A DNA stretch of 58,290 nucleotides, filler included, from Catajapyx aquilonaris (lineage: Eukaryota), in assembly GCA_000934665.2 (NCBI GenBank). It is 2 parts of 2 records of this genome, joined end to end, with 100 filler letters (N's around TTAATTAATTAA, not from the genome) between each part and the next. Parts side by side here need not be neighbours in the genome. Positions count along the whole stretch, not along the records: positions 29,197 to 58,290 come from JYFJ02004830.1; 1 more part is not named here. One strand, given 5' to 3'. The position numbers and the translations under genes were made by a program. The notes beneath the pieces were generated by a model. It did no database searches, was not told the DNA's origin, and saw nothing but the letters and a program-made list of their open reading frames with translations. Positions 20,401 to 58,290 of this stretch are shown here, in pieces. The number at the start of each line of letters is the position of its first letter. The first letter of the stretch is position 1.

Positions 20401-23400
20401 GCTCACAACGCAGATAGCCTGCGTGATATCCGTAAAATCATGCATTCTTTATAGTCAGCAACTCGTAAAAGTAGTTACATCGCACGAAAATATGCAAGCA
20501 CTCCGAACAATGCCTTCAAAAAAAAAAAAAAAACTCCTAAAAAGATATGCAAAGGCTCATTGGTCAGAGAGCTTTCCCTCTCTGCAGCACCAGCAACTCA
20601 ACATCTCTCGGTTAAAATTGTGCAAATTTTCAGAAGCAAATGGAGGTAAATGGGAAGGCCGCCGAGGTTGGAACGCAAGACAACAATGCGGAGGAATCCG
20701 GAGACGAAAATCCGGAAAGAGGAAACTGGGACTCGAAGATGGAGTTTCTTCTCTCGTGTTTGGGTTACGCCATTGGAATTGGAAGCGTCTGGAGATTTCC
20801 GTACCTGTGTTACCGCAGCGGAGGAGGTCAGTGATATGCGAACTTATATGTCTTGCCAAAATAATATAGTCGCCAATATTTGCAAAAAATTATGGCAAGT
20901 GACTGATGAAAATGCCATTAAATTATGAACACAACTTTATATGGCGAAACGCATCTTTTAAACTGTGATGAGTTTATAAGCAATGTAGCATAATAAATAT
21001 ATAAATGGATAAATAAATATAAATAAACTGGCCCCTATTATGCAAATGGTCTCGCACTGGTTAGTGTGATGCAACATAACGGAAATGCAGCGTAAATTAT
21101 TACATACACGCAAAGAGAGAAGGGCAAGGTTCTCGTTACCTGACCACCGACTCTCGACGAATAATTGCATTGTTGTATCACGGCAGTGCGATAACAGTCC
21201 TTGCGTGCTAGCCTTGAAAAATGTCAGTCTGGACAGGGAGCAGGAATCGTAAATCATAGCAATCAGAGCCAAAGTCGACCTCACACCAAAATAAAGCCAT
21301 AAATCAGGCCTTAACAATGCCCAGCTCTCATAATAATGGTCTTTTTCTCTCCAGGAGCCTTTCTGGTTCCCTACCTGATCATGCTTTTCGTCTGCGGGAT
21401 ACCCCTCTTCTTCATGGAGACCATACTCGGACAGTTCAGCAGCCAAGGATGCATCACGGTCTACAAAATCTGTCCAATTCTCAAAGGTGAGTAGATGGAA
21501 CACCTGGCAAATAAAAGGACAAAAATGAATAAATATTGAGTCACGCCCTTCATGTACACAGGAAGAAAAATAATGTTGATAAAAATAACCCCAAAAATAT
21601 GTGCTAGAGTACAGTTTTACGAGTACCGGTATTTTTTTCTGAGTCAATTAGGCTCCTTGAGGGGACATCGACACATATATTAATGATCAAATATTACATT
21701 AATTATAAATGTTCGTGTTTCTGTTTGTACTATACGCCATTATAACATTCACACATATACACTAGCTGTATTTAATTTTTAAGGTAAAAATAATTTATTT
21801 CTCCGACTTCAGATTTAGCTGAAATCACATTTTCATCAACTCACATTATTTTGTGATTAGTACATTTCCAAGAAATCCAGTTCTGTCCGGATTTTTTTTT
21901 ACGTAAACAGGATTACCCCCCGTCGGTGCATTTTCAGAGAAAAAATTATACGTTTTCGAGAGGAATTCCCACAATCTAGGAAAGGTACGCACATAACCGA
22001 GCAAATTTTTTTGCTTGAGTTTGCGTCTGATTTTTTGCATGATATTATTACGTCAGATTCAACGAAACCGTTTGTTTTTTCCCAGAAATGCCAACATAAA
22101 TCCCAGGAATACACCGGTTGTGTTTCACCGAACTCTTCCAAGCCAGTTTGTCAAGTTTCTTGGCATATGCGCACGAAGCGGAAATTTATTCTCGAACTTT
22201 TGAAGTATTAAATTCAATTTGACTGACACTATATAGCAATCCATGATGATTTGAATGAGGACCAAGCTGCGTAACACGCATCGCTCATAAAATGTTATAA
22301 CACGGTTCAGCTTTATTGCGTAACCATGCTTTTGATTGGTACAGCATCTTAAAAGTCTCAATTGTCAGCCAATCAGTGTGGACCGGCTAGTTTTTCTATG
22401 AAAACATTGCCGACCTTGGAAAGCTATAGTTGCGGTGACCATGAGAGTTCATTAACAAAGTTGGCAGGCTTCCACACAACGTCGTACGGCTTCCAGATCG
22501 ATCATTAAGTTCTAATGATGTCTGTTAAGAAGAGATGCTCCAGATAGGACCTTAAAGAGAGCTCAGCTTGTGATTTGGTCCAAAACAATTAATTTTCGAG
22601 CGAGATTTTAACGACGCAATAAATCGTAAAATTCGCAAATAAATCAGGCGTGATTGAGGAAATCATAAAATTCACGCTAGGTCCGGAATCAGTGCAGAAT
22701 TCCAAGGCCGTCTAATTCTTGTTCGTTACAGCCACAATCACACCTAATTACACACCATTTTTTGCCGTCACATCACGCATCTAACCATTTCATTTAAAAT
22801 TATTAGCCGGTTCAATTGATATTTGCGTTCAGATTTTATACTTTTTCTCATCGAAAAAGTCGTATAGAACGGTTCTGTCCGTCCGTCTGTCTGTGGACAA
22901 GTATCAGCGCCTAAACCAAAAGAGAAAGCTACAAACGGTTTTAGGATTCGGTTTCAGCGTGACCAAAATAGGTTCCATAATCAACTTCCGGGTTTCCGGG
23001 TTCACTATCCGCCAAGGTCAAGTCCACAGGCGGGTGACATTGAAATGAGACTGACAACACTCGATGTCATTGTTGCCCAATAATGAGAATGGCATCGTGT
23101 GGCAACGAAGTTGTCAGTCTCATTTCGCGCTGCCTAATGAGAAAAAGTATATTCGAATCACGCTCGCGTGATTTTTTTTTTTCAATCTTGTTCCTATGTA
23201 ACAGCTAGTGTTTCTTCTCAGGTGTTGGCTTTGCGACAGTTGTGGTCAACTTCATAGTGACTTCTTATTACAACGTGATAATAGCGTATCCACTGTACTT
23301 CCTGGCCGAGTCCTTCACCTCAACTCTTCCTTGGAGTGACTGCAACCAGTCGTGGAACACTGACAAATGCTTCAAGGTGAAAATTAGTTCAGAGTCCGCT

Positions 23401-26400
23401 CCTCTGTTCTATTGTTGTCTGAACCGCGTCTGGCCCGGGTTTACATATAATTATAACCTTTACATTGTGACTTTATACAGCCGAGCCTCGAGGACGACCA
23501 GCAAGTGCCATCGGTGCTTGCCAGCATGTGGAACACGTCTTCGAGCCAACACATCACTCAGATCATCAAGACTCCTGCCGATGAATACTTCCAGTAAGTG
23601 AGAAATGCAAACAACCCGCATATTCATGACCCAGCATCGCCTTTGCATCGCATGTGAGGGTGCACAATATGATAAGGAGTGTGCGCCAACAATGGGGCTC
23701 GGACCTTTAAAAAATGTGCGGAATAATAATAATAATAATTGGCCATACACTGACACGTAGAGATTTTTCTTTAAAATATTAGTTTTTTTGGTTCAATGAA
23801 AATATGATATGAAGAAACATTATTTTAACATATTTTCAGCAATCACATCCTGGAAATGTCGGATGATATCAGCGAGGTCGGAACCATTGTTTGGCAGCTG
23901 TTCATCTGCAACGCTGTGTCTTGGATTTGCATATTTCTGTGCATCCTCAAAGGTGTCAAGTCTGTGGGAAAGGTGTGTATTAATTGTGTTGTACAATAAT
24001 TCAATAATATTAGTCTACTAACTGAATCGGGTTTCTTGTCTGTAAGTTGCTTATTTTAACGGTCAAGTGTTTGCATAATTATACAGTACGACATCTGATA
24101 CAATATCAAGGGACAAACTGTTTCAGTAATAGAAATCAAAATAATTGAGAAATCCCAATTTTGTTAGAGATACTTTCGCGCTAATATTATTTTGAATCAG
24201 TGACTATTATCAGGGACTAATGTTATTATATTTTTAGCCAGTGCCATGCCAATCAGCGATACCGTTTGACATATTGTAGCGCGTGTTATAAACTGAATTT
24301 TTCGCTTCTTTTCTGCGTATAGGTGGTGTATGTGACAGCAACGTTTCCATTTCTCATTCTATTTGTCCTGCTCATTCGCGGGGTCACACTACCTGGCGCC
24401 ACAGAAGGAATCCTCTTTTATATCACACCACAATGGGACAAGCTCACCGAGTTGAAGGTATGTTACGCGACAACATCAAAGTACAAAAGTAGTAAAAATA
24501 GTCAATCTCTATTATTGTACTTTAACATGTGTAAGGAAGGTCCAAATCACTGAGATACGCTTGTTATACAAGATGCCATGGCCTGTCATCCTGATTACCT
24601 TAATCAACTTGACAATATTGCGTATTTTTCTTGCCACTCCAGGGTGTAAAGTGCATGTAATGTAATACACGGAGAGTACCACATCAAGCGACAAATAGAT
24701 TAGATAACTACTACGTGCTCTATCTCCTTCTTTTGGTACTGTAAACATAACTCATGCCGTGCGGGAGTTTTTTGCTCAATTCGCGACACTGGATAAACAC
24801 TCCTTTCGCATGACCGGCATGACTAAATCAATTTTTTATAACAATTTACGAGAAGAAAAATGATCTTAACACCTGAGTCGTCGAGACAAATATTTTCCAT
24901 GTGGTATTATTATTGTATTTTTCTTTGTAATTTCAAGTGTAATATTGTGTGTCTAATTTTCTTACAGGTTTGGGCAGATGCTGCGGTCCAGATATTTTTT
25001 TCGCTTGGACCCGGTTGGGGTGGTATTGTCAACATGGCCAGTTACAACAAATTCAGGAACAACACCAGACGGTAAGGTTATCGCCACCTTTAAATTTCTG
25101 ATGACACTAAACATAATTTAAAAAAGTGTTTAATTACCTTTCACAGAGACGCATTCTTGGTGCCCATTGTCAACTGCGGCACCAGTATTTTTGCAGGCTT
25201 TGTTGTGTTTTCAGTACTGGGATTCATGTCTTACAAGACGGGAGTTCCTGTTCAGAACGTGGCCACCGGAGGTACGGTCTTAATATTGACACGTTCGTGT
25301 CACACATTAATACAATAATTCTTATCTCACAAAATTCAGGACCTGGACTAGCTTTTGTTACATATCCAGAGGCGATAACTTATCTGCCCATGTCCCCAAT
25401 ATGGGCTGTGTTGTTCTTCCTAATGCTCTACACGTTGGGGCTGGACAGCATGGTGAGATCTAAAGTTCCTCTTGTGGTAGGTAATGTGAGGTTAATTATT
25501 GTTACCATTGCAGTTTGTACAAATTGAAGCCATCGTGTCCAGCGTACTGGACGAGTACCCGTCATTTCGCAAGCATAAACTGGCCGTAACATTTGGATCC
25601 TGCTTCACAATGTTCCTGGTGTCTCTCACGTGCATTACAAACGTAAGAATTTTATATGGTCTCATTTATTGCCAAATTACAAATAATATATTTAGTGTAA
25701 ACAGGATGGTTCAAAAATGATCTTATTGTTTCAGAATGGAATGTACATATTGCAACTTCTGGATTGGTATGCTGCTTCAATGTCTGTGATCCTAATATGT
25801 TTAGCTGAAGTTCTCATAGTAGGATGGATCTATGGCAAGTTGGACTATAAATACTCAATTCCAATCAATCATGAAAAGGAATACTGCATAGTTCAGGAAT
25901 CTAAACGCAGCATAAGTTTTCTCTCTCTCAGAACTTTCGCTGCTTGATTCTACTTTCACTCATCCACTTCATTCTCTCTATTTATTGCATACAGGGTGAC
26001 TCAAAACTATCCATTTTAGACTTACACTGACTCAGGACTTATAGAGTTATGACTCACCCTGTTTATATACATGTGCTTGTGGAAACAATCCTGGTAAATG
26101 TCACGACTTTCGCTGAAGCTTTAATATTCGTGTTGAGTACATTTTAAATTTTCCCTGCAAAAACACAAAATAGGACATAACTTTGTTACAAGGATGTCTT
26201 TAGCGTTCTTTCTGTTCCTGCAGTGCTGCAGTTCGTTGTTCCCCAGGTCAAACAGCAAGCACTCCATTATCGATCCCTGTCATCGAGGATTGCGCACGTA
26301 AGGCGTTTCACGGACCTTGCAATTGTTACATGAAAGAAAAGTAATTACATTCTGTTTTATTATGACTATAGGTTCTTAAAATCACGCAGCAAGTTTTTTT

Positions 26401-29096: not shown

Positions 29097-29196
29097 NNNN
29101 NNNNNNNNNNNNNNNNNNNNNNNNNNNNNNNNNNNNNNNNTTAATTAATTAANNNNNNNNNNNNNNNNNNNNNNNNNNNNNNNNNNNNNNNNNNNN
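29097..29196. other. Artificial assembly gap/spacer
   Basis: 44 N + TTAATTAATTAA (stop codons in all six frames) + 44 N = exactly 100 nt. Confidence 0.95.
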
Positions 29197-30928: not shown

Positions 30929-33900
30929 ATGGCGGAGGTGGAACAGGAGACTCGGCGGAACCTGGAGGCCGCCGCACATGTGCTGCTGGTAAGGGGCAGG
31001 TCAAAGGGCAAAGGTTGGGGGAAAAAGAACGGGGCGGACACCACCAAGGGAAACACGACGGCCAGGCCTAATCGAAGCTTTGTTCCCAGAAATTAATTAG
31101 AACGTGTCATGCTGTGGAAATGTGCAACCTACAGGTAATTAGGAAATAATTAGTATGTGACATCTGATGGAAATGTTAGCGACTGTGTGTGTGAAACAAT
31201 GGAAAGTACTTACCTTGTGTGAATAAAATGATTTGTTGCCACATTTGGGAGTAATGATTTGCTGACTGACGACTAACCTTCGTGTTAGGCTCCACCTAAT
31301 CTGGTGAGCAGTGACCAGCGTCATGCAGCCGAGGCGCTCTTTCTGGAGTTCCGCAAGACCAAGACTCCTTTTATGCTCTGCAGATACATACTCGGTAATT
31401 ATTCGGTAATGCAGTGGTTGCTGAAAGGGTCCTCTAACAATTGTTTTATAAATTTCAGAATCAAGTGGTTCGGAATATGTACTGTTCGAGGCTGCTGCTC
31501 TCTTGCAAGAGGCTGTGGTTCGAGAATGGGGGACGGAATCTGGCCTGCAAGGCGGTGCAGACGCGGAGGCCCTGCAGTCATACCTCCTGCAGTTGGTGCA
31601 GCGTCCTGACCTTCCCGGCAGCGTAAGGAGCCGCCTCCTACAGTTGGTGGCTGTACTGGTGAAACGTGCCTCTCTACAAGATGGTGGAGGACAGAGGGCT
31701 CAACTTCTAGATCATCTGCAACAAATGCTGCTGCAATCAGGCGGAGGTGGGGAGGAGCTGGCCTGCGGGATTTTGCAATCTCTTCTGGAAGAGTTTGGAA
31801 CGACTCTCCACTCAGCTGATATGGGTCTTCCCTGGGAGGAGCACCTGAAAGCCAAAAGACATTTCGAGGGTGGAGGACACCTGCAGAGGATCTTTCGTCT
31901 GTGCCTGCAGGTGCTGGGAGGGATGCTGACCAGTCCTGCAGCTGTCACAGGAGGACCAGCCTTCCCCCACGCTGGCCTACTCAGACGGCTGCTGGCCTTG
32001 CTGGAATCAGTGCTGACCTGGAACTTCGTCTCTCTCAATCATATCCTTTCTATCAAATAATTACACTGAAATGGCAGTTGCTGAAGAGTGCAGGAACATT
32101 GAAATAATATTGGTAGTGGGGAATGGTGATATTACAGATTAAATTAAGACAAAGTGTCAGTGTTTTGGATCCCTGAGGATCGTGTTCTAGGGGTTTTAAT
32201 GTGAATGGAAAATCCTGTGCTGGCACCAAACAATATTGTTACCAAATTGGTAAAATTCCACTTTATCTTAGGTCCGTAATAGATCAGTTTCCGGTTTCAC
32301 TATTTCGTTTTTTGAAAGTTGGTGGCCCTACTGCCGTGCATTCATATCTTACAGTAATGTAAGCACAGGAAATGTAATTAACCACAATGGGGAGTGCATG
32401 ACCTGTAGTTGTGTAGTGTCCTATACATTTTATAACTTTCTTAACTTGCTGGCACTGCCAAAGAAGTTGATGGGTATGTACGAAGCAAACCAGAATCCAT
32501 CGCTGCGTCCTGGAGTGGCCTGGAAAGAAGTTTTTCTAGAGTCCAACCTGATAGAAATGTTCTTTCAGGTAAGAACAATTTGCCTACATTTTGATTTGTT
32601 TATTCTGATTCTGAAGTCTTATTACCTTTTTTATATATAAATTTGTTTATTACCTCCTATATAAACCAAGACCACACTCCAATGTAAATGATATTTCACA
32701 TTGACATTAACACAACCTTTTAATTGCGTTTTGGATGACCAAATCATGTTTTTTGATGTGATGTGTTTTTCTCCTCAGCTTCGTTGGCTAGCACGCACTG
32801 ACACCCTAGCGCTCCACTCCTGGAGCAACTGCATGGTGCAGCTGGCATCCCTGAATGGGGCTCTCCTAGGCACGAAGGAAGATAAAGTCCACTACCTGTC
32901 TTCCTTTCTCCAGGGTGGCTACCTGACCCTCCTAGGTTCCACTGATCTCCAAGGAGACGAGGTCCTCGGCCTGGCCCAGTCCACGCGAAACTTGGTCCTG
33001 TTCTTCCCTCCCAATCTTCTTCCTTCCCTCTCTCCTGCCCTGCAGCACTCATTCCTACACCACCTGACGACTCTCACCTGTCACCTTGCCAACCTTGCAG
33101 CACAGGAGGAGGCCAGCCTAGGGTCTGTCTTTACCTCCGTATCTTCTGATGACAGAGTGGCCTGGGATTCCTTGGAGCGCTTGCTGGAAGCCTGGACAGT
33201 GCTGTCAGGGGAGGCTTCCTCCTTGCCCACCAACTTACTTAGCGAAGGGGCATGGATGGTCTTCCAGGAGTACCTCAAGAGCCACCTGGCACCTCCGCAG
33301 GGGATACGAGGGGCTGCCGCACCAGTGGAGGTTAGCTTCGTCGGCTGCGTTTTCTGTCTTTATGCTCAGTCTCTGCTGCTGTTGTAGATTAATGTCACTA
33401 CTGATTGCACTAAAAGTAACAAATTTTTTTATGTCACAGCGGGATGGACAGGATGAAGAGGAAGAGGTGGATGAGGTGGAAGAGACTGACTTGACCCGAT
33501 GCCGGGATCAGCTGCAGGCAATAGGAGCATTGGCCAGGCTGGTTCCTCAGCGGTCTCTCCCAACCTTGGTGACTCTCCTTCGCCGAGGAACTGCACAGCT
33601 CCAGAGCCTTCTGCATCACTTGGCACTGCAGGGAGTTGGGATAGCATCATCCAGACGCCTCAGAGATCTGCAAGAGGATTTGCACTGGTTGATGCTGGTG
33701 GCCGGGTGGGTGTTGGCTCCAGATCAGGAAGGAGAGACTGCACTAATTCCGTGGGAGCTGCTCAAGGAGAGCCAGGACATGGTGCAAGGTGGAGGAATTG
33801 TTCCTAGGATTGACTTCCCACAGGTGAGAAAGCACTTACGAATCAGATGACTGCACGTAACTGCAATTTTTATTAACATTACAAGCTGTTATTTCCCTTC

Positions 33901-35805
33901 CCCAACCTTTATGGGCAAATTGAATAGTCTGAGCTTACGGTTTGCTATCATTCTTCAGATGGTTCTTCAGGAGGTGGATAGTGAAGGTGAAGAAGAGCCT
34001 GGTGGTGACTGCCTCGTTGCTCTGGCTGCCTGCACCCTTCGCCTTGCACATGTTGATGCCAGTACATGGGGTGCATCCACCCTCTCCCCTGCAGCAAGCC
34101 CCCTCCTGTCCGCGTCCGTCCTATGGTTCCTCCGAAAATGGTCTGCAGCGTACCTCCTTCCTCCTGAGAGCCTCTACGCTCATCTGGCAGCTCCTCTCCA
34201 GGCAGCCTTTGGCCGTGACACCCCTTCCGCTGCATGGACTGTTCGCTTTTTGTTAGGCCTTGCTGCTACGTACTTACAGAACTGTGGGGGTGAGTCAGAC
34301 GTGATTGATGGGGCAGTCTCGCTGCTGGTGTCCCTGGCAGAATGCAAGCACAAGGGTGGAGCAGTGATGGCTGCCGCTGACAGCCTAGGAGCACTTGTAG
34401 TCATTTTGCATGGAAAGAAGGCGCTAGGAGCTGAGGGGCGACGAGGACTAGCTCGTGCACTGGTGGCCATTGGTGGGTCTGCAGATCGGCCAGCTCGTGA
34501 TGAGTTTTGGGGACGTGTGTTACGCCCTGTCATAGAGTCCCTAAGTACTGATCTGAGCTCACCAGCACATCGAGACATCACACTCTCCCTCCTAGACTGC
34601 TTAATTGGAGCAGCACGTGCAACCCAAGCAACTACAGCCACTCCTCTGTTCCAAATGGCACTCCGACCTGCACTGAGGGTGGCACCAGGACTGTTTCGTG
34701 CAGCTGCCAACTACGGGGAAGTGCAAGTCGGGCTCCTTGAGGTTTACGACGAGGCAGCACAGAGGACCCTGTGCTACCTCCCCCCTGATGAGTCAAGAGA
34801 GTTCTGCGGGTATGCACTGGCCTTGGTGGCAGAGTTTAGGAGAGTGAGAGGAACCAGCCTAGTGTTGGAGCCAGGGTCAGAAGAAGATACGTACAGGCAC
34901 ATACTGCTGCTCATGCAAGTAGCAACTCACCTCCTGGGGAAGGATATGCTCGGTAAGATGATTCACAACATATCACGTTGAAATCAGCAGTTTCTACCAC
35001 TTTATATATACTTCTAGCTGGATAGGTGGGGTAGAGATGCAAGTTTCGTGAACAAGCCTCCCAAAAATAGAAACCTTACATTGTTGCTCAATCTTGTACT
35101 TGTCAGTGTTGACTAGTGCATTGTTTTGTTTGCTTTATTTCAGACTTCGGTGAGTGTGTGCCTGAAGGGAACAATGAAGAAATACGTAGCATCCCATCAG
35201 AGGTTTGCTTGTCTGCCCTGGACACACTCCTTCCCCTCCTGACTGGGGAGCTCCTCCGCTTCCCTTCACTGTCCCTCCAGTACTACAAGTTGGTCTCCCT
35301 TCTCTGTGAGATGCATCCCCAGCAAGTCCTCCAACTGGGTCTGCAGCTGCGAGGCCCACTCCTAGGGTCTCTCGAGGCTGGGTTGACCGGATTCTCAGGT
35401 GATGTGGCCATCCTCTGCTGCGATGCCCTTCAGTCCCTCGCCAGCTGCGTGTCCTCAAGTGATGGACCAACTGCAAGTGACTGGCCAGCACTTCTCAGGC
35501 CGTTTTTGGAGGGACTACTGCAGCCGCTGGTTGGAGGCCAGCTGGCTCCCGAGTCCCTTGCGTCTGCTTCTTCCGCTCTGTTTGCTCTCCTCTGTGCACT
35601 TCCTGATGCTCTGCCATCGCTGTCCCATGCACTGTTACGTCATGTGCAAACCCCAGCAGATGCTGTGAGGCTCAATCAGGCCCTGTCCGATTTGCTTCAG
35701 GGTGTTCTCCCCTTGCTGCCCCCTACGAGACCTAAACGCATACATTTTCGGGACAACTTTGATAAGTTCCTCTTTGTTGCCAGGGGCATCATTCTCATTA
35801 AGTAA
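30929..35805 (+). CDS. XPO4: Exportin-4, 1150 aa
   Basis: Exons 30929-30988, 31289-31394, 31459-32040, 32456-32568, 32779-33330, 33440-33823, 33959-34952, 35144-35805; 3453 nt in frame. Motifs LEAAAHVLLAPPNLVSSDQRHAAEALFLEFRK, YVLFEAA..LQEAVVREW, HLAPPQG, EDLHWLMLVAG, FLRKWSAAYLLP, LLRFPSLSLQYYKLV, FRDNFDKFL. AATAAA at 36354-36359. Confidence 0.93.
32041..32455 (+). other. U12-type (minor spliceosome) AT-AC intron in XPO4
   Basis: 5' end ATATCCTTTC at 32041, branch site TTTCTTAAC at 32437-32445, AC acceptor at 32454-32455. Removal joins AAT C|TG CCA (N-L-P-K-K) in frame; read-through hits TAA at 32058-32060. Confidence 0.93.
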
Positions 35806-36810: not shown

Positions 36811-42361
<5,551 letters not shown>

Positions 42362-45153: not shown

Positions 45154-48100
45154 ATGGGCAGCACCCTCAGCCATTTCTTTCAATCGGGAAGCGCCTTGTT
45201 GTCGTCATCCAACCATCGAGGCGTATCAGAGCAGACCAAGCGTATCATGCGTGTCATCTTTGATGTGCTGGGATCAAATCCACGTGTAACTGTGCAGAGG
45301 CTTGAGGGACTCCTGTCACAGATTCCAAAGGTATAAATGTACTCACTGTCCACGATCCAGCTTCCTCTGACACCAGTGTTTGCTTCCAGAATGAGAACAT
45401 TCTTTTAGTCCACAATGAAGAAGGTTACAACGTCCTTCAGAAATGCGTTGGGATCAACAACTTGGAGATGACCAGGTGGATTCTCTGTAGAGGTGTTGAT
45501 GTGAACCGCGGGGCTTGCTCTCTGCCCTTGCACATAGCCTGTCTGAAGGGGTACGATGACTGCGTGGAAGTTCTACTCAAGTATGGGGCCAGAACAGATG
45601 TAGAGGCTCGCATGTGCTGGCCTGGACCTCACAACCAGAACTGCGAGGAAAGGGGAAAATACTGTGAGCAATTCCTCCTTTTGCAACTTCACTTCTCTCC
45701 TACTTCTGTCTAGTGTATTTTATAAAATTGTGGGGTAAGAACCAATGGTTCAATTGCCAGTATTTTATGTTGTTCTAAATTGGTGTTACAGAAAGTGTAA
45801 CGACATGTAAGATTGTAATAGACCACTTGAATTACTTCAGGCTCAAGCTAATGCATTTTGGTGTATATGTCACGCTTTGTGATTTGCGCAATCTGTAAAT
45901 GGCTGTAGTTTAATTGTCTTTATATCAAGGGCGTCACTGTAGGCAAGAGTACATAAATCAGTAACAGAGCCGCATTCTTTCCCTTTTTTTCATTCTACAA
46001 AGGCATGCATGATGAATCTCTGGTTGATCGCTCTAGCGACAAGCTTCAGAGTGCCATCTACTATGCCATCGATGGTGATCAGGTACTCCACCTCTTGCTC
46101 TCAATGGACCTGTATTATTAAGTAGTGCATAATTTTCTCCAATATTCTTTGACTCAGCAAATGAAAATTTAGTGTGAATGTGAGTGATATGAGACTGACG
46201 CTTTACTCTTATGCAGGTGGACATCCTGGAGCTGCTAACCCAGCAGGGCGAGGAGCACTGGTTACCTTGGCAGCAGAAGAGGCCACTTTTGCACATAGCT
46301 TGCGAGAGAGGAGCCTGGAATTGTGTCAAGTTCCTGGTGGCGGAAAGGGCTGAGGAGATTAATCAGTGTTATGACGAGTTCTATCCCATCCACCAGGCAG
46401 CACTGCATGAACCAAAGTTTGTGGAGTTGCTCATACAGGTGAGACGAACACTGTTTAATTGAAAATTGAGTGTAATGAAGTTTGCCTGGGAACAAGTGGC
46501 TGGGCAAATGGACTGTAAGGTAGCAAAATAATGGCAAAATAATGTGGCAGTAAGCGTTTCCCTGTGTAATAAATATTTTCACTTGTAGGCTGGGGCGGAA
46601 ACGTCTGTCCGCACTGCAACGCAGCAGATGACCCTCCTGCATGTGTTGTTTTTGTGTGGCAAGAAGAGTGCAGAAGATACCCTGCACACTGCCCGATTGC
46701 TGTTGGACCATGGCTTGCAAGACCTGCTGAACAAACCTGACTCCCTTGGGAACACACCACTTCATGCTCTCATTGTCCGGTGAGACATTTGACACTTTCC
46801 ACTGCTTCATGTAAAGAAGCTGATTATTATGTTTTTTCGCAAGTGTTGATGGCTGAATAGGCCAGTTTCACAGGACATGATTTTTCACAGGTATGCCCTT
46901 GAGGAGGCACGTTATGTGTACAACCAGGAACCAGTACCTTGGACGAAGTGGGATCTCCTCCACCTAGTCCGTTTCCTACTGCAGAAGGGAGCAAAGGACT
47001 CTATTAACCAGCCAGGAAATTCCGCCCTGGCCTGCGTCCTAAGGCATGTGCGAGACTGGGAGTTTAGGTACGAGCTTCTCCACATGCTGCTGCAGGAGGG
47101 AGGTAATCCTAATGTGGTAGGGAGAGACGGATCTGTCCCACTCATGGTATGCCTTGTGCCACTCATCAACAAGGACCCATTGCATCACTTCACACACACC
47201 ATGAAGGCAAGTTTACTGGATGACATTCAGCCGTTTATATCAAGTACGCTGTAATGAAAACCTGTGCAGCGCAGGGAATTAACTGTTCTCTTGAGAACCA
47301 CATCCTTTAGAAAAATGTAATTTAACGTTTTTCCTCATGTTTTAGGTTTTCTACCTGAACTGCGTTCGTCTCCTGTGCATTCATGGGGCCAATGCAAACT
47401 GCTCGTCTCGGTCCCACCTAACCCCCCTGCATGTGCTTGTCTTCACGGCCAACGAGAACATGGCTCTAAGCCGGGAGCAAGAAAAGGCAGACAACTTTGC
47501 TTTCATACGTGAACTCCTTATACTTCTCCTGAAATATGGGCTGGACCCAAATCTGCGCTTCTCTCAGCGCACCCCTCACGTCCTTTTGGCACTCCTGGAC
47601 TTGGTAAACTCTTCTCGCCAGCCTCGCGACCTGGATCATGTGTATGACCTCACTCAGACTCTGTTGTCGTATGGGTCCGATCCAGATGCCTACCTGGGGG
47701 GGACTGAGCCCACTATTTGCCACTCGCAGTCATCACTGTACCTGAAGAGGGATGCCAGTCAGGTTTTGGCTTCATATGTGCAGGCACGTATTCATCTTGG
47801 AGTTGGAATAGCATTTTAAAATTATCCTCTTTGCAATGAGCAATTAAACATCCTATAATATGTGATCTTAGCCTTTAAGATAGCAGTTCTCATATACTTA
47901 ACCATTCCCATTGCAATATTTGATAGGTGGTGAGCCGCAAAGAAGAATTATTGGCAGACCCACAGCAAAGGTTTGCCCGACTGCTGTGGCTTTACCACCA
48001 GACCATGAGCCACCGGCCCCTCTACGCCTGCCTGAAGATGCTGGCTGCATCTGGTGCTGGCAACCCTGGGGCGTCTGGGCCGGGAGCAGGACCAAGGGCA

Positions 48101-48316
48101 AGGGGTGGGACAGGCGGGGCAGCCAAGGCTCCAGCCACACCGCAGGTGTCCACGATGGCCGGCCTTCTGCGGAACATGCACATGCAGCCCCGATCGCTGA
48201 AGCAGCTGAGCCGCCTGAGCATATATCACTCACTGGGACGCAAACCAGCCCTGCACATTGGCAAGCTCCCACTGCCCACCTCGCTCAAGGACTACCTCGT
48301 CTCCTTCGAGCCCTGA
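45154..48316 (+). CDS. Ankyrin-repeat and SOCS-box protein (~695 aa), predicted N-myristoylated
   Basis: Exons 45154-45330, 45390-45663, 46003-46082, 46217-46438, 46589-46779, 46891-47206, 47346-47783, 47927-48316; 2088 nt in frame. Ankyrin motifs PLHIACLKG..CVEVLLKYGA, LLHIACERG, PIHQAA, GNTPLH, TPLHVL. C-terminal SOCS box PRSLKQLSRLSIYHSLG...KLPLPTSLKDYL. Starts MGSTLS. Confidence 0.88.
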
Positions 48317-49443: not shown

Positions 49444-50152
49444 GTGATTAGCGCGTGAAGAAACGGTCACTCTGGCCAATAATTCTATGTATGACTTGAC
49501 AGATTTTTGGCATCTGAAAGTGATAACTATATGGTAACTACATGCACCTAGGTGATGAGTCAGCGCACGTAGGGACAAAGTCACGCCTAGCCAATTCTGT
49601 GTGACATGTTTTTGGCAACACACCGGCCGATTTTAAAAGCTAATCAGGGTAACATCAATCCGCAACCCGTTTCAAACCGGCCAATCACATCCGTTTGTTG
49701 TACATGCCACCCTGAACAGCACAATCTGGCATCCCTGCTTTTCCGCCTCCCCTCCCTCTTCCCTCCCCAATCCAACAAACAGGCGTCACTTGGCAACCCC
49801 GCTTTTCCATTCTATCCCGAGGATTAAATGTCGTTGGGCGAACGGGATCCGTCGCCCCGATCGAATCCGGAATCATCTGGCGGACATCAGCACAGGAGGC
49901 GACCCTGCACTGCCCCGGACAGACCCTGAAGGTGCCCCCTGCCAGCCCCCGGCACCAGACGGACTCGAACACGGCTTGAGTGTCATCCTCCCAACAGTTT
50001 TCTCCCGAGTGGGTTTTTCCCCCCCCCTTCCCTCTGTCCGTGTTCTGAAGGAGAAGAAGAAGCAATAATAANTTTACAAGAGAGAATATTTTCCCCTTTT
50101 TAGCGCCATATCCCTCTGTCCGTGTTCTGAAGGAGAAGAAGAAGCAATAATA

Positions 50153-53100
50153 ATGGCCTGCGCTACGCTGAAGCGGAGTTTGGAGTTCGACCCTCTCCAC
50201 AGCCCTGGAAGCTCCAGGCCGCCCAAGAGGAGGCGATGCATGCCCATCTGCATGTCCAGCTCGGCCCCTCCCACCAGGCAGCACCAGGTCGACCCTTCGC
50301 CCTTCTCGGATGCAGTCAACAAGCTCACACCAGGTCTGTGTTGCGTACAGGGAGGAGGGCCTACCAGGCTGTACCAAGTCGTACCAAGTAAACGAGTGTG
50401 CGTTGACGCAATCACGCAGCGAGGTCGTTCCGAGGCCAAATAAATTGAGCAAAGTTGTTCCGAATGGGTAGTGCAACCTACCCGGAACAGTCCCGAGGAC
50501 AACAGTCGCTTGTGCAATAAGAGACTGCAGCAAAAGTACTAAGCCGCATTCACATGCGAGCGATTTGATCGATGATGTTGCAGCGATGTACCCCCGCGAG
50601 CGAGACGGCAGCCCCTTTTTTGACCAATATCCGACTCAAATTAATGAACTCTTTTTGGACTGAGCTGCTTCAGGCGTATGTTCGTGTACTTATGACAGTA
50701 TATTTGATAACGTAATAGCTGAGATTGGTGGAGCAGCCTGGCGAAGGGAAGGGCCTGCTGTCTCCATCTTTATGCTCGTGGGTGTACAGAGCGAAATTCG
50801 CCCCGAACTATCAGTCTCATCGTTGATCAAATTGCTCACATGTAAGTGTGACTTAACAGACTGAAACATGTCACTTTTGCAGTAACAGACTGAAACAAAA
50901 GTCGCTTGTGCAGTAACGGACTGGAATAGTTTTGCATGGAGTCAGTACCAAGTCAAGTTACAGGAGGATAATTCTGCAGAATTATCTGATGTGTGCTAGT
51001 TCATGCGGCCATTGTGCAAAATAACATGCTGATGGTTTGAAAAGCGGCACTGATTCTATTGTGCTGCTACAGCAAGTTGCGACATGAGTATGTTTCTGTA
51101 CTGAGGAATATGGCTGTTGGATTTGTCATAAACTTGTCCCTTGTTTTTGATGAATTTAGCAGATATTTAGCTTCTAGAATTTTCTCAGAGTCGCCGGTCC
51201 GGACTGGTTTGGCTAATGTATTCACATACTCCGCATCAGGACGGGTCTATTTCCATGGGTGACTTACACCTGAGGGGGTAATTACATAACTGTGGTGCAA
51301 TGAAACAGCTGACACATCAGGAATTTTGACCTTGCAAATCATTCCGACTCCACTGGCACCGTAATATTCTAAGGATTCTAAATTAGGATAATTTGGCCCT
51401 AGCGTGATGTCACATGCTGCATCTGAAAGGTTAATAGTTGTGTTTACATTAGTTTTCATAGGCTGACATGTAGTATAGGGAAGTTGCTGGGGAGCCATGA
51501 TACACGTGTCGTTAGTCCTTGGTGAAGTTGCAGGTTTTATGTAGTATAAGCTACAAGTTGCATTGCGGAATGTTTGTAAGGCTTGAATTGTGTATTACCA
51601 TGCGAAATACTTATCATTAAGCGAAAGTACAGTCATAGGCATACGTAAACACACAGATTTGGGATGTCTAATCTGATGATGTCATGCAAAGATTGGGCAA
51701 AGTCTGAAATGCTTTTCTGAAGAAATGGGGGATTTGTTGCGGTGGGAAAAAATTTGGAAATTTTCTCAAGGTGGCAGCTGGGGATGGATAGTGGATGGCA
51801 ACCTTGCTTTGAAGGCCATGCCTTTAGGATATCCATACGGTTATTAGGACGGCTGTTTTATCTATTCGAGGTGTAATTATACCTTCTTATTCTTAGATAT
51901 GAATTGTTTGTATGGGATTTTTTATGTCAGGCCTCTGCAATTAAATGCATTGGAATGTCTTGCTATTATTCAGTGCTGAGTTGACGCAGATTCCTCGTGG
52001 CATTGCAGTAATTGTCACGCGCAATGAATAAGTCTGGAATTTGTTGCACCCTTGGAACCAATGCGAAATTGGTGGGTTACCAGTAGTTATGGATGAGGCA
52101 TTATGTGCAAAACTTAATGGAAATTAGTTAACAGGGATTGGGGAGAGTTTCGATTAGTTCTGTCTTGTGTTCGCTTGGATTTTCTGTTGGGCTATACTGT
52201 TTCCTCCGACTCAAAACCTGTCACAGCGCAGCCTGTGAATAAAGTTGGTCATAAAGTGTGATCCCCTAAAAGGCCCCAGTTGTAGGCTTATCACAGGGGA
52301 GCCCATTATTATTATCCCACTATTTGTATCGCAGTAAATAATTACATGTGCATGTGAAGGTTACATACTGTCTCCGATAGTCCCAATTTACAGCTTCAAT
52401 TATCTTCTAACCGTTCCCAGACCTTAAAGTATCCTCCTAGAGGCATAATAATCATGCATTTGTGGTGCAAATGCCTGGCATGCTGAAGTATTATCGCCGT
52501 TTCATGGTGCACACCCTGTTAATGTTATTAGCGGCATTACCAATAGATCACATTGCAATTTACATACAATGTAATTGGCAAAATCGTGCAGATTATTTGA
52601 CAAAGTGGAGAACAGGTTATCAAATTTTTCAAACATTGGGCAGGGATGGCAGTGTCATACATCTGACGATGATAACAAAAGTTGGAGGTACTCTCAGTCC
52701 AACAAGAATTGTCGCAGCGGCAGCGCACGAACTACAATCTACGAGCACAGGGACACGAGAGACTGTAGTTCGTGTGCTGCCGCTGCGACAATTCTTGTTG
52801 GACAGCAGGTATACACCAGCAGATTCACACCACAGTTAATTTTATTGCTAAAAATAGTTTTGCCATGTTTAAAGGGAAAATTTTTGGATATAGGTTTTTA
52901 TTAAGCAATCCAAATGTCACCTGAAGGGTTTAGGCTTCCTTGGGAGGAAGTGTGGAACTGGGAACTTTTTTGTTTTGTTGCAATACCATTATTTTTCACT
53001 GTTGAATGTAGCATAGCCCTGAGTTACAACAAATATTTCCTTCCATGGAAACTCGACCAAAAATATTGCAAGCAGCCATGACTTTTTTGAAAAATCCATC

Positions 53101-54079
53101 TCCTAATGTACAAATGGAAAAATTTGACACGGAACAGGTGCAAGAGAACATGGGTGTGAGGCGAGCATTAATGGTATCTCAGTTTGCACACGTAACGTAT
53201 TCCACATCCATGATATTGCTTTGAGGATGAATATCTGCAACAAAAATTCAATGTGACACATGTGTCTCTTAGCCGCAATTACAATATCTAATTGCTCCAT
53301 TTTCTTCCACAGAACGCATTGCAGCCAATATCCGGGAGGAGATGCGGCGCCTGCACCGGCGCAAGCAGCTCCACTTTGAAGGGGAGAGCTCATCGTCTGG
53401 ATCAGAGAGCCCTTCTCCGCCAACCTCCCCCTCCAGCGGCAATCTACCTTCCCGCCTGTCGCACCATTCGCAGTCTGCCACCACACCCACCCCATCCATG
53501 ATGGGCCATCGCCCTCATCTCCATCTTCACTCTGCTCCAAGGGACAAGCCTCTCTTCACCTTCCAGCAAGTAAGTCCTTCCTTCCTTTGCATTCAGAATT
53601 TGCTGCTAATGCTCTGCTACTCTTTTCGTTGTGCAGGTGAGGATGATCTGCGAGCGCATGGTACGTGACAGGGAGAGTGAGCTGGTTCAGGAGTATGACA
53701 CAGTGCTTAACACCAAGCTGGCAGAGCAATACGACGCCTTTGTCAAGTTTACTTATGACCAGATCCAGAAGCGATTTGAAGCTGCTGCTGCTCCCAGTTG
53801 TAAGTTATGGAAAGAAAATTCCTGCAAGGAATGTGTCGCATTTGCATGTGTTGTATCGTAGGTGGTGGCATCAGTGTGTCACTTTCATGTGGATGAAAAA
53901 TGTAGTTTTCCATATTTACAATGACATGAAGAAATGGTGGTGGCTCACAATTATGTGTAGTTATGAATTAGCTTGGTCCTTTTCGTTTACTTACAACTGG
54001 TGTTTTTGTCTTTGAATTACGACAACTCTTTTTGCGTATTACTGAGACATTGCTTTCCTTTGTTTCAGACCTGTCTTAA
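50153..54079 (+). CDS. akirin: Akirin (subolesin), 203 aa
   Basis: Exons 50153-50333, 53313-53569, 53637-53799, 54069-54079. [14 protein letters not shown]...[51 protein letters not shown]-terminal PSYLS. AATAAA at 55012-55017. Confidence 0.97.
50540..50855. mobile_element. Harbinger-like MITE in akirin intron 1, same family as the ATE1 intron cluster
   Basis: TAAGCCGCATTCACATGCGAGCGATTTGATC ... GATCAAATTGCTCACATGTAAGTGTGACTTA. Confidence 0.7.
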
Positions 54080-55855
54080 GTTGCAGAGGAGCATCCATAT
54101 GACCCACGTGCCTAAAAGAACCGACGCATCCAGTTGGGTGAGGGGGGTGACCCCCTGAGCCCCATTTAGCTTGTGTTTTAATAATTGCCAAACGGCACTG
54201 CGGTTTAAATACTACGCATAATAAGGGTATATTGTGTATCACTACCAACATTTTGGAAGGGAAGTGGGAAAGTTGTTGCCAAGTGGACTCTTCACGTTCC
54301 CCCCCATTGCCTACCCCTCCCTTCATAGTTGCATGTAGGGTTTAGATATTTGAGGAGTGCAAGAAAAGTGGCCTTTGGTGAAGTCATTGGGCGGCATACT
54401 TTGCCTCAAAAAAACGAAGCCTCTCCCTACCTCTCCTCCCACCCTCCTTCCGACCAACCAATCCAACTTGCACCTTCCTGTGATCATACCAATGCCCTTA
54501 GCCTGACTATTAACCCTCCCTCCCCTCATCCATTCGTAGTTGTAGGACCATTGCTTCTTGTGTATATGGAGAACAAGTTGGTGAAGACAGTGCTGTTTCG
54601 AGGAGAGTGACACTGGGTCATTCGTGCCACATATTACAAGTTGGGAAAAAAGAGGACTGACGGGACGTGATTGCCAATTGCTAATATTGCTTATATCTGT
54701 CGCCGGGGTCAATGCGGAGGCTGAGAGCTTCTGCGGCATGTCACCCTAGTAGATGTGTTGTGGAGTAGACAAGTTGCAGCGCTGTCTGAGTAGTGATTTA
54801 TGCAGTCCCTTACCCCCCTCCCCTCAACTTTACAATACCCTTGGAACCGGATAAAACTCAGTGACTCAGCAGCGCAACAAAGAGTGGCAGTGGATTTGCA
54901 CTGCAGTGTACACGTGGTTGTCTACAGTCTTTTTTGTACAGGTTTTGCTCTAATCATATAATCATCCCCCCCCCTGGAAATGCCCTGTTCCCCTCTTGTG
55001 ACTGAGCCCGAAATAAAGTTGTATGGGTCATTTGCTCATACTCAGTTTATGGCAACTCACTTTTTTAAACCTCGTCAATGCCTTGTTGTAGACTTCCAGC
55101 AAGACAAACCTAGGTCAAGTTGTTGTGTGTAACGTGGTAAGGTGTGACTGGATTTCTCGTGCATTGTTTTGAGTGTGATTGTGGCAGTATTCCGTGTCAT
55201 GGGCAGGGCCTGCATGTGGTCTTTGCCCTTACCTGTCTTGTAGATAGGGCGCTTCTCCTTGGGACGGCAGTATTGTTGTTAGTGTCACTTTCAAGCCAGT
55301 GTAACAGAAGATGGTCATTTGAACACATTTTGAAATCAATACACCTGTCTGCTCTCTTGTCGCTAAAATGTCGCCTTTGGAATAGTACTGGTATAACAAA
55401 GGACATCAATGGCTGAACACTATCATTCAGTTTAACTAACAATGAAAGGCATGTGACGTCAGTCCTGTTCTAAGACAATGTATTTAAGCTAATTGTTGAT
55501 CTGCATCATGAAACAAATCTTTTTGCATGGAAAGCCTCTTTATTGCACACAAGTTAACATGAACTTCAGGTACATGTAGCATGATCTTAAAAATAATGCT
55601 TGCCACGTTCTCATACTTTCTGTGATGGTCAAACGTTTTCTTTAACGCAAGTAATGACTTGACTAAAAACAAAGGGAAGAAGACAGTAGTAGTTTGTACT
55701 TGCCGACAGTGAAACTAATTATTGGCTTACTGGTATTGCATTCAACGAAGACTGTTACAACCTTAACAAACAAACAAAAACTAAAGGAGAAAAAAGACAT
55801 TAGGATGGGAAAGATATGAGCGAGGCACTTGGTGGCAGCTAGACTTCTGTCGTGA

Positions 55856-57669
55856 TTAATGGTGCAGTGCTGCGGTGCCAGCCAGTACGGTGGTCCTCTG
55901 CAAACAATATTTTAATGTCATGATGCAAGTACTCGGTGTTTCCAAACTAACCTCCTGTGGTGTACACCACTCCCAAGAGAGCAGTCCCTTGGCGTCGCAA
56001 GGCACCTCTGGCACAACAGCCCTCTGCTCAAACATCTTGCACAGGGCACTCAGCATCACATCAAAGGCTTCATCGCTCCATTCCTCCTCACCCTCATCTC
56101 CACCACCATTCTCAGGAGCTCCCTTAGCTCCACCCAGCAGCACATGTATCATCTCGCCCTTGGGCTTCCTGCTAAGAACCTTGGGTAACTCCCAGCCCAA
56201 GAGATACATTGCATCCACTCCCATGTCAAACTCCAGGAGTGGTCCCCTCCTATTTTGGGGGGCAAGCACCTTCACGCGCCGCACCCAACGGCAGCTAAGT
56301 TCCAGATCTTGTTTCTCATCGTATCCAGTGAGATCAGGATTGCCTGGCTCGGGTCTCTGGACACTGACAGCAAGCGAATGGGTACCAACGTTGATGTCTA
56401 CCCACCAGTTACGGTTGACTGGCTTCTGCAGAAAGTGATATAATTAATGTAAGCAATTTATCATCCAAAAACTAACTGGTGGTCAAGGAAAGAGTACGGG
56501 TAGGTCATGGATCCACCTTGCAATTACTAACTATAAGTCCAAAGTAGGGTGTCATTGACAATCACGATTGAAACCTGACCATCATTTTTTATATAAAATA
56601 TTGTCCTTGCAGTATTTGTAATTTATCAGCCATGTCAACTTACATAAGGATGAAGCTCCAGATCACCCATGAAGAACCTGTTACAAGTGTATGAAAATAC
56701 TGTCCTGCTGGAATGTGCAGAGCGGTTCAGGTAATTCAAGAACAAACGGCAATCCTGAAAACAATATTGTGGCATGAGTACGGTACTGCTACATCTAAGA
56801 TGTGAGAATGACATGTGACAACAACCTGTGCCGAGTTGGTGCGAGGGAACTTGGCTTGCATCATCTTCTTGTATGGAAACCAATCCTTCAGCAATGCTTC
56901 GTTACTCTGACAAGTGCGGAATATGTACTCCAGGCAAATGACACACTTTAATTGCAGGGGGTAGTAACCCATCTGAACCAGTGCTGCGCTCATTTCTGAC
57001 CTGTTCAGAATGGAACAAAGTGTCTCTCAACTGTTTCATATACAAACTGTGACAATACATACAACTGCTTCTTGTACACGTTGGCAAAGGCAGGCATAAT
57101 CCCATTTGGAAAATAGTTGAAGACCTTCTCCATGACCTCACATGCTTCCAGCCTCCTCTCATGAAGCGCAGTGGTCATCATCACCGTCTGATGCAGGGGC
57201 CTCCACATCCAGCAAGCCGTGCTCATATCCCAGTTGCCTGCTAGCTTGTAGAGCAGCGAGATCATTGCGGAGCAGTCATCCCAAGCAGTGGCCGACCCAA
57301 CTCCTAGGTCCGCATTCCACTCCACTAGCGCAGTGATGATGGTAATCACCGAAGCCATCATATCCTCAGTCAACTGCTTCTTCTCATAGGCCGCGGTCAG
57401 GTTGATGGTCACTTGAGCAATCTGATCCTTGGTCAGCTTCTTCTCATTCTTTGGAAATAATAGAGGGTTATTATGTCAGCCACAGATGGTTATGGGCTCA
57501 CCTTGGCTGTCCTGATGGCATTGACGAGCCTATCCATGGCCAGGCTGGTGAGGGTGGCCGTGGGCTTCTGCATGTGCTCCAGGAGTCCAGGGAGCCCCTC
57601 TGCAGCCGCCTTGCTCACATGCATGTTGAGGCTCGGGGCCAAATACGCTCCAGGACCAGGGGACGCCAT
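55856..57669 (-). CDS. SYCP2-like meiotic axis protein, N-terminal ARM + PH(Spt16M-like) module only (~450-470 aa)
   Basis: Minus-strand exons 57669-57502, 57448-57063, 57000-56826, 56754-56644, 56425-55856 (possible extra in-frame 54-nt intron 55951-55898), all GT-AG and in frame. MGYYPLQ..C.EYIFR, DCRLFLNYLN....RTVFSYTC..FFMGDLEL.P and WWVDINVGTHSLAV match remembered SYCP2 motifs GDYDLQ..EALCR, DCRIFLN..N....RRVFTFPC..AFLD..EL..P and FWIDFNLGS. Minus-strand AATAAA at 55544-55539. Confidence 0.72.
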
Positions 57670-58290
57670 CGTTACTTTTGCAATCAACTCTGGCTGATGG
57701 AACACTGGGGGACAAAATGGCGGCCACCAACGGTCAGATTCACAGGGATGCCAGACGATGCAACCGGTTTATTTTTGACGACCGTTGACGACTATGGGAA
57801 GCGATGGCCAAGAAGACTATAGGCACCTGCTGATTTTTAATGTGCTTCTTTATGCTTAAACGCTTTACGAAACATTATTTTTATTCTGCCTGGCGTTTCA
57901 TTATCTCCAAAATAATGTTGCCAAATGTAGTCCGGTCGCCACCACTGGAGGTTACCAGATGGCAGCACCACATTACGTGGGGGCCAGATTTTACACTATG
58001 AATATTTTAAGCGCAATTAATATACCAATTACGCATGTCGAATGTGCAAAATGTGTTTTACGACAGGACCTTACCTGAAATAGCGTCATAATTTGATAAT
58101 GTGCAAATATGAAAACTTGTGGGCCGTTCATAGTCTGTGCTGATAGGTGTGAGTTGGTGCCATGTCGCTATGACAAGGCAGGAGATGCATCTGCAGTCAA
58201 AATATCCATATGGATGATACATATGGATATCGTGTTGTTTTCGGTACACCAAATCAACACAACATCCATATGTATCATCCATGAGAAACA

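Follow-up and report, generated by a model that had tools for sequence, protein, structure and literature searches.

The locus and its gene model

In a 58,290-nucleotide stretch of DNA (filler included) from Catajapyx aquilonaris (GCA_000934665.2), referred to here as the window, the minus-strand reading of positions 55000-58290 contains a SYCP2-like gene whose ATG starts at 57669 and whose TAA stop lies at 55856-55858, with akirin and several further genes on the opposite strand (Table 1). An earlier note had placed the gene at 55856-57669 on the minus strand, limits that proved exact to the base, and the intact five-exon open reading frame of about 470 aa that it described was reproduced as 469 aa with GT-AG introns. 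This five-exon model is a single open frame in which the exon phases fit together; its four introns measure 53, 62, 71 and 218 nt, GT...AG ends are present in 4/4, and a stop codon stands in frame shortly upstream of the ATG (frame 57490..57768). Inside the last exon of the model there is a stretch of 54 nt (55951-55898) that is stop-free and has a GC content of 0.35, within the range of the other introns, and when this is removed as an intron the gene has six exons and encodes 451 aa with an unchanged C-terminus. Since the stretch has both an intron-like GC content and GT...AG ends, I prefer the six-exon, 451-aa model as a prediction over the five-exon, 469-aa model.

Table 1. Coordinates of the SYCP2-like gene, its alternative 3' coding segments and its neighbours, in positions of the window.
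Feature	Position	Strand	Remarks
Exon 1	57502..57669	-	Residues 1-56; start codon; donor AAG|GTGAGC
Exon 2	57063..57448	-	Residues 57-184 and two bases of the residue-185 codon; modelled helical
Exon 3	56826..57000	-	Residues 185-243; G-Y-x-P-x-Q and W-F-P motifs
Exon 4	56644..56754	-	Residues 244-280; starts D-C-R-L-F-L-N; matches mouse SYCP2
Exon 5 (six-exon model)	55952..56425	-	Residues 281-438; modelled beta-rich; W-V-D-I-N motif
Exon 5 (five-exon model)	55856..56425	-	Includes the 54-nt stretch
Optional 54-nt in-frame intron	55898..55951	-	GTTAGT...TTTGCAG; 18 more residues if retained
Last coding segment	55856..55897	-	13 residues and TAA
AATAAA poly(A) signal	55539..55544	-	About 312 nt past the TAA stop
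Akirin, last conserved exon	53610-53861	+	Matches Akirin-2, 7NHT, E 4e-17
AATAAA of akirin	55012..55017	+	Sole plus-strand AATAAA after the last conserved exon of akirin
Ankyrin/SOCS-box gene	45.3-48.3 kb	+	Further along from akirin
Arginyl-transferase exon; SLC6 transporter exon		+	Beyond akirin

The open frame is more than chance, and both codon usage and the contrast in GC content between exons and introns support coding. The exons have GC contents of 0.43-0.63 compared with 0.35-0.42 in the introns and 0.38 in the 3'UTR, and the GC3 of the coding sequence is 0.64. When a codon log-likelihood was trained on the neighbouring genes of the window, the sense frame scored highest of all six frames, at +0.257 per codon, while the remaining five ranged from -0.278 to +0.080. 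The stop-to-stop frame of exon 5 spans 195 aa, a length reached in none of 200 shuffles of 54001-58290, and that of exon 2 spans 156 aa, which was reached in 20 of the 200.

The positions of the two AATAAA signals on opposite strands imply that the SYCP2-like gene and akirin converge, with their 3' ends face-to-face and about 0.5 kb between them, and the next 10 kb past the SYCP2-like gene are filled by the plus-strand genes for akirin and the ankyrin/SOCS-box protein. When every minus-strand frame was screened crudely by composition, none that looked like a coiled coil turned up downstream until 5.2-5.6 kb, about 50 kb off. The TAA stop stays in frame whether or not the 54-nt intron is removed, and the longest helices in a low-confidence model of exon 5 (pLDDT 43) have 17-18 residues. 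Taken together, the stop, the poly(A) signal, the convergent akirin gene and the lack of a coiled-coil-like frame downstream argue against a nearby tail: the gene as predicted encodes no coiled coil and has no room nearby for one, and I consider it likely that the protein is truly tail-less. The two remaining structural claims of the earlier note, a poly(A) signal with the 3' end of akirin close by and a missing coiled-coil tail, thus hold as well, the former at 55539-55544 and 55012-55017, and the latter in a protein that ends at residue 451 or 469 with no coiled coil before that point.

Similarity to the N-terminal module of SYCP2

The sequence searches, Pfam scans and fold predictions each used single exons or contiguous pieces instead of the joined protein, and all of the negative results that they gave are weakened by these single-exon queries. 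Seven pieces were searched against the PDB chain sequences (177,635) by phmmer. The 37-aa peptide of exon 4 had a sole match at E <= 10, to 5IWZ_A, the crystallised N-terminal region of mouse 'Synaptonemal complex protein 2', with a full-sequence E of 0.0098 at 19.4 bits and a best-domain E of 0.057 at 17.1 bits. Without any gap, query residues 1-34 pair with 263-296 of the chain, and 14 of these 34 are identical; in the spliced protein the matched segment is residues 244-277, with residue 244 set against mouse residue 263, and the match therefore spans the ARM/PH junction at a similar distance from the N-terminus as in the mouse protein. The other six of the seven pieces gave no SYCP2 match among the PDB sequences: either nothing was returned, or the best matches were unrelated proteins with E between 0.11 and 2.1; exons 1, 2, 3 and 5 were each without a 5IWZ match in these single-exon searches, as were queries of 22 aa and 40 aa around the W-V-D-I-N motif. 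After seven PDB searches an E-value of 0.0098-0.057 is borderline, and a chance match is made less likely by the unique target and the equivalent position, such that similarity to the SYCP2 N-terminal ARM-PH domain is detectable in exon 4, marginally. In Pfam, none of the five exon pieces, scanned as single exons, matched any family at E <= 10, including the SYCP2 domain profiles SYCP2_ARLD and SYCP2_SLD, and the matching segment of exon 4 falls at the junction of the two SYCP2 domains.

A second comparison is with the SYCP2 of the silkworm Bombyx mori (XP_037874109.1; 1,800 aa), which has been confirmed on the axis by antibody; insect SYCP2 is reported to be missed by blastp from mouse and to have required PSI-BLAST and Phyre2 (Xiang et al. 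2023, PMC10151401). I compared this sequence, taken from Fig. S5 of the supplement to that paper, with the SYCP2-like protein by eye, counting residues by hand and after the hypothesis had been formed. Read in this way, G-Y-x-P-x-Q stands at residue 194 in silkworm and 196 in the SYCP2-like protein, W-F-P at 226 and 225, Q-D-x-R-x-F-L-N-x-x-N at 250 and 243, C-x-R-F-x-x-G about 20 residues after the latter motif in both, and W-x-D-I-N at 291 and 288. A hand tally of substitution scores, made with no tool, puts the pairwise E against silkworm SYCP2 at the order of 0.01. Weak scores are to be expected of a true invertebrate relative, since a blastp search from mouse misses even the insect SYCP2. 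The SYCP2 likeness that had been claimed for this gene in the earlier note is thus supported in part, by the exon-4 match to 5IWZ, the silkworm motifs seen by eye and an end to the gene without a coiled coil; Pfam and six of the seven pieces gave it no support.

The predicted structures are of low confidence. The AlphaFold model of exon 2 (single sequence, single exon; pLDDT 55) is all helical, with six helices, and in that of exon 5 (no alignment; pLDDT 43) the first 135 residues form five strands along with two helices, and a short sixth strand comes near the end. In mouse, residues 1-390 of SYCP2 contain an ARLD of 14 helices and then an SLD built of a beta-sheet and two helices (Feng 2017, PMC5498334), and the helical-then-beta layout of the models would agree with this ARLD and SLD arrangement; exon 5 would probably supply the rest of the PH-like subdomain and a C-terminal helix. 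The nearest ESM Atlas clusters to exon 5 were all PH-like (PH_RDR2, RME-8_N, Vps36 GLUE, GRAM and BBS5), with scores of 0.78-0.82 that are to be read as leads, and for exon 2 a GAIN cluster at 0.75 was not useful. The best Foldseek E for the low-confidence exon 2 model was 0.59, and 5IWZ was absent among the matches listed in the fold searches, an absence that carries no weight as to the fold with query models this poor (pLDDT 43 and 55).

Searches for homologues in larger collections were negative throughout. In a word-indexed search that covered longer proteins only, exon 5 gave 1,088 candidates with none at E <= 0.01, exon 2 gave 164 candidates, again with none, and no candidate at all came up for exon 4 extended by 5 flanking residues that the intron encodes. 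An exhaustive phmmer search with exon 5 found 0 matches at E <= 0.001 among 1.84 billion representatives, and among metagenome contigs 0 were confirmed out of 78 and 151 pattern matches. With no homologue of exons 2, 4 and 5 found in these collections, there is no sign of conservation or purifying selection in the searches.

Family standing and competing explanations

Judging from the sequence, the gene probably encodes only the N-terminal module of SYCP2 without the filament-building tail, and it is quite likely that the protein is a diverged relative of that module. In such a protein, a helical armadillo-like part (exons 1-3) would be packed on a PH/Spt16M-like part (exons 4-5), a tail of some 35 residues would come next, and the long disordered linker and C-terminal coiled coil would be missing. 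By definition, a 'SYCP2-type' protein has the order ARM-PH-coiled coil (Tromer et al. 2021, PMC8131943). A coiled coil was looked for here and is absent, and for this reason the gene is filed as an ARM-PH-only relative and not as a strict SYCP2-type member. No ARM-PH-only SYCP2 relative was found in the passages of the family literature consulted, which describe coiled-coil-only offshoots (SYCP3, ASY4, KKT16) and full-length paralogues (SYCP2L, KKT17/18). On balance, and by a narrow preference, I favor the view that the locus carries an intact and compact gene whose product, a divergent SYCP2-family protein, consists of the folded N-terminal module alone and would act as a non-polymerising adaptor or competitor. 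Of the two readings offered in the earlier note, a stand-alone ARM-PH paralogue would be preferred to an orthologue with a lost tail if a full-length SYCP2-like gene is present elsewhere in the genome. The more specific proposal that it is a natural ARM-PH-only SYCP2 paralogue, present beside a full-length SYCP2 and regulating the meiotic axis in soluble form or repurposed outside meiosis, is a tentative one and rather doubtful.

It is unlikely that the gene instead encodes a lineage-specific protein unrelated to SYCP2, in which case the exon-4 match and the short motifs would be due to chance or convergence. That SYCP2 was matched by only one of the seven PDB searches, with a best-domain E of 0.057, that none of the five exon pieces had a Pfam SYCP2 match, that protein and metagenome searches gave no homologues and that the low-confidence models gave no usable match in fold searches would all agree with such a protein; however, 5IWZ was the sole match in 177,635 PDB sequences and pairs residue 244 with 263 at the ARM/PH junction, silkworm SYCP2 comes from a second phylum relative to mouse and has the five colinear motifs at near-equal positions (by eye), a layout of helices and then strands and a folded length of about 410 residues agree with the N-terminal region of SYCP2 (390 residues), and the weak scores are those expected when even insect SYCP2 is reported as undetectable by blastp from mouse (PMC10151401). 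The poly(A) signal 312 nt on and the convergent akirin 3' end about 0.5 kb further, the plus-strand genes (akirin and ankyrin/SOCS-box) over the next 10 kb, the stop that is in frame with or without the last small intron and the distance of about 50 kb to the first coiled-coil-like minus-strand frame at 5.2-5.6 kb make it decidedly unlikely that these exons merely open a longer SYCP2-type gene, whether its transcripts skip the terminal exon and splice onward to distant exons or its linker and coiled coil were split off through an assembly error or gene fission. In favor of such a gene, the GT donor at 55952 is of good quality, and 620 nt of the window remain upstream of the ATG.

Partial gene duplicates are common, and the homologue searches gave no sign of conservation, both of which would suit an unexpressed or decaying partial duplicate of the 5' end of a full-length SYCP2-like gene, namely a young pseudogene that is still open. 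Yet all six exons are open with every splice site canonical, and the codon-usage signal lies in the sense frame. A similarity index that recovers most proteins at 70% identity gave no stretch resembling exon 2, exon 5 or the locus, which speaks against a recent copy provided that the full-length gene is among the indexed sequences, and an old unexpressed copy would have lost its open frame; I therefore regard a pseudogene as very unlikely, and return to the favored reading of an intact gene for the N-terminal module alone.

Possible mechanism and relation to known systems

I infer the expression, localisation and binding partners of the SYCP2-like protein from what has been described for its relatives. 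Mouse SYCP2 without its coiled coil is reported to reach the axial cores with weaker chromatin binding and no recruitment of SYCP3 (PMC2063860), and the N-terminal region of mouse SYCP2 to bind centromere proteins in two-hybrid assays (PMC5498334). By the same token, the ARM-PH module could carry the C. aquilonaris protein to meiotic chromosome cores or centromeres, where the lack of a coiled coil would prevent its co-assembly with SYCP3 into axis filaments and it might serve as an adaptor that does not polymerise, or compete with a full-length SYCP2-type protein. In SYCP2 and Red1 a closure motif that binds HORMAD proteins follows directly after the folded N-terminal domain (West 2019, PMC6349405), and the tail of about 35 residues sits in this place in the SYCP2-like protein and could conceivably bind a HORMAD as well. 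If the gene were a paralogue, its product might take up the sites on chromatin, cohesin or centromeres that full-length SYCP2 uses, and possibly its HORMAD too, and such occupancy in the absence of polymerisation might cap or tune axis assembly; alternatively, it may have been repurposed outside meiosis in the manner of SYCP2L and KKT17/18.

Which partners the ARM-PH module of SYCP2 and Red1 engages along chromosome arms is described as an open question (West 2019, PMC6349405), and a 2026 preprint reports no mouse equivalent of the fungal/plant cohesin contact. If the interpretation given here is true, the ARM-PH module would have a function of its own that is separable from filament formation, and the protein would offer researchers a compact, soluble handle for finding the partners of this module. 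Should the family link or the expression fail, the gene would be simply an orphan.

Several known systems invite comparison. One is mouse SYCP2 itself (5IWZ; residues 1-390), which resembles the SYCP2-like protein in that exon 4 aligns at a matching distance from the N-terminus, in folded length (390 residues compared with about 410) and, if the low-confidence models of the SYCP2-like protein are right, in a helical first half and beta-rich second half. The two differ in that about 1,100 further residues follow in mouse SYCP2, comprising a closure motif (395-414), a disordered linker and the SYCP3-binding coiled coil, whereas the SYCP2-like protein ends about 35 residues after the folded module and has diverged too far over the remainder of its sequence for phmmer. 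With Bombyx mori SYCP2 it shares, by eye, five short motifs that surround the ARM/PH junction in the same order and at near-equal residue numbers, and these two proteins have in common that neither is found from mammalian SYCP2 by blastp. The best experimental analogue is mouse SYCP2t, a SYCP2 lacking the coiled coil (Yang et al. 2006, PMC2063860), although as described there it was made by an engineered deletion and retains the long linker, while the SYCP2-like gene would be a natural form with the folded module alone.

The wider family also provides precedents for diversification by duplication and domain loss. Coiled-coil-only paralogues of the SYCP2-3 family are reported to have arisen four times, SYCP3, ASY4 and KKT16 being SYCP3-type offshoots that consist of the coiled coil only, and SYCP2L and kinetoplastid KKT17/18 are reported to have taken on new roles at centromeres or kinetochores (Tromer et al. 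2021, PMC8131943). The derived forms described in that work keep the coiled coil, and the SYCP2-like gene would be the reverse partition, with the ARM-PH part only. If the reading holds, C. aquilonaris would add the missing ARM-PH-only partition to a family that already has coiled-coil-only offshoots, as the mirror image of SYCP3.

Neighbouring genes and assembly gaps

The candidate SYCP2-like gene on the minus strand is accompanied by several plus-strand features, listed below together with the open frames and repeats considered in what follows. For akirin, the neighbour converging on the SYCP2-like gene, the C-terminal exon matched Akirin-2 (7NHT) at E 4e-17, and none of the three akirin pieces scanned against Pfam was assigned a family. 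The ASB-type gene combines Ank repeats (E 4.6e-09) with a SOCS_box (E 2.6e-13), and the series of long open frames, for which Pfam returned nothing at E <= 0.01, is probably one big multi-exon gene. Two runs of 44 Ns each (29097-29140 and 29153-29196) and isolated single Ns at 4519, 49155 and 50072 are read as assembly gaps, the two runs lying within the 100 joining letters, not from the genome, that separate the two records.

Features in the window, with strand and supporting match
Feature	Position	Strand	Match or property
Sodium:neurotransmitter symporter exon	23209-23598	+	SNF, E 6.3e-19
Series of long open frames	31452-35802	+	202, 231, 376 and 230 aa
Exon with arginyl-tRNA-protein transferase C-terminal domain	41548-42174	+	ATE_C, E 1.4e-32
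ASB-type gene, ankyrin-repeat and SOCS-box	45306-48313	+	Domain matches Ank, SOCS_box
Open frame antisense to akirin promoter and first exon	49688-50635	-	316 aa
Akirin gene	50153-53861	+	C-terminal exon matching Akirin-2
Open frame antisense to exon 5 of the SYCP2-like gene	55860-56435	+	192 aa
G-C-C-G-C-C-A-T-T-T-T-G	57713-57724	-
Inverted repeat	58202-58282		32 nt, 91% complementarity, 9 nt separating the arms

Antisense open frames

The 192-aa frame opposite exon 5 scores lower in codon usage than the sense frame of the SYCP2-like gene, so it is probably an incidental result of how GC-rich the coding strand is. The 316-aa frame lies in a GC-rich region and for this reason is probably due to chance.

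Upstream of the SYCP2-like gene

At the window edge, approximately 550 nt 5' of the ATG, the inverted repeat encloses a nested 14-nt palindrome and could form a hairpin or mark where a small transposon ends. Closer in, some 45-55 nt 5' of the same ATG, stands the short string listed in the table, which looks similar to a YY1-type promoter element.
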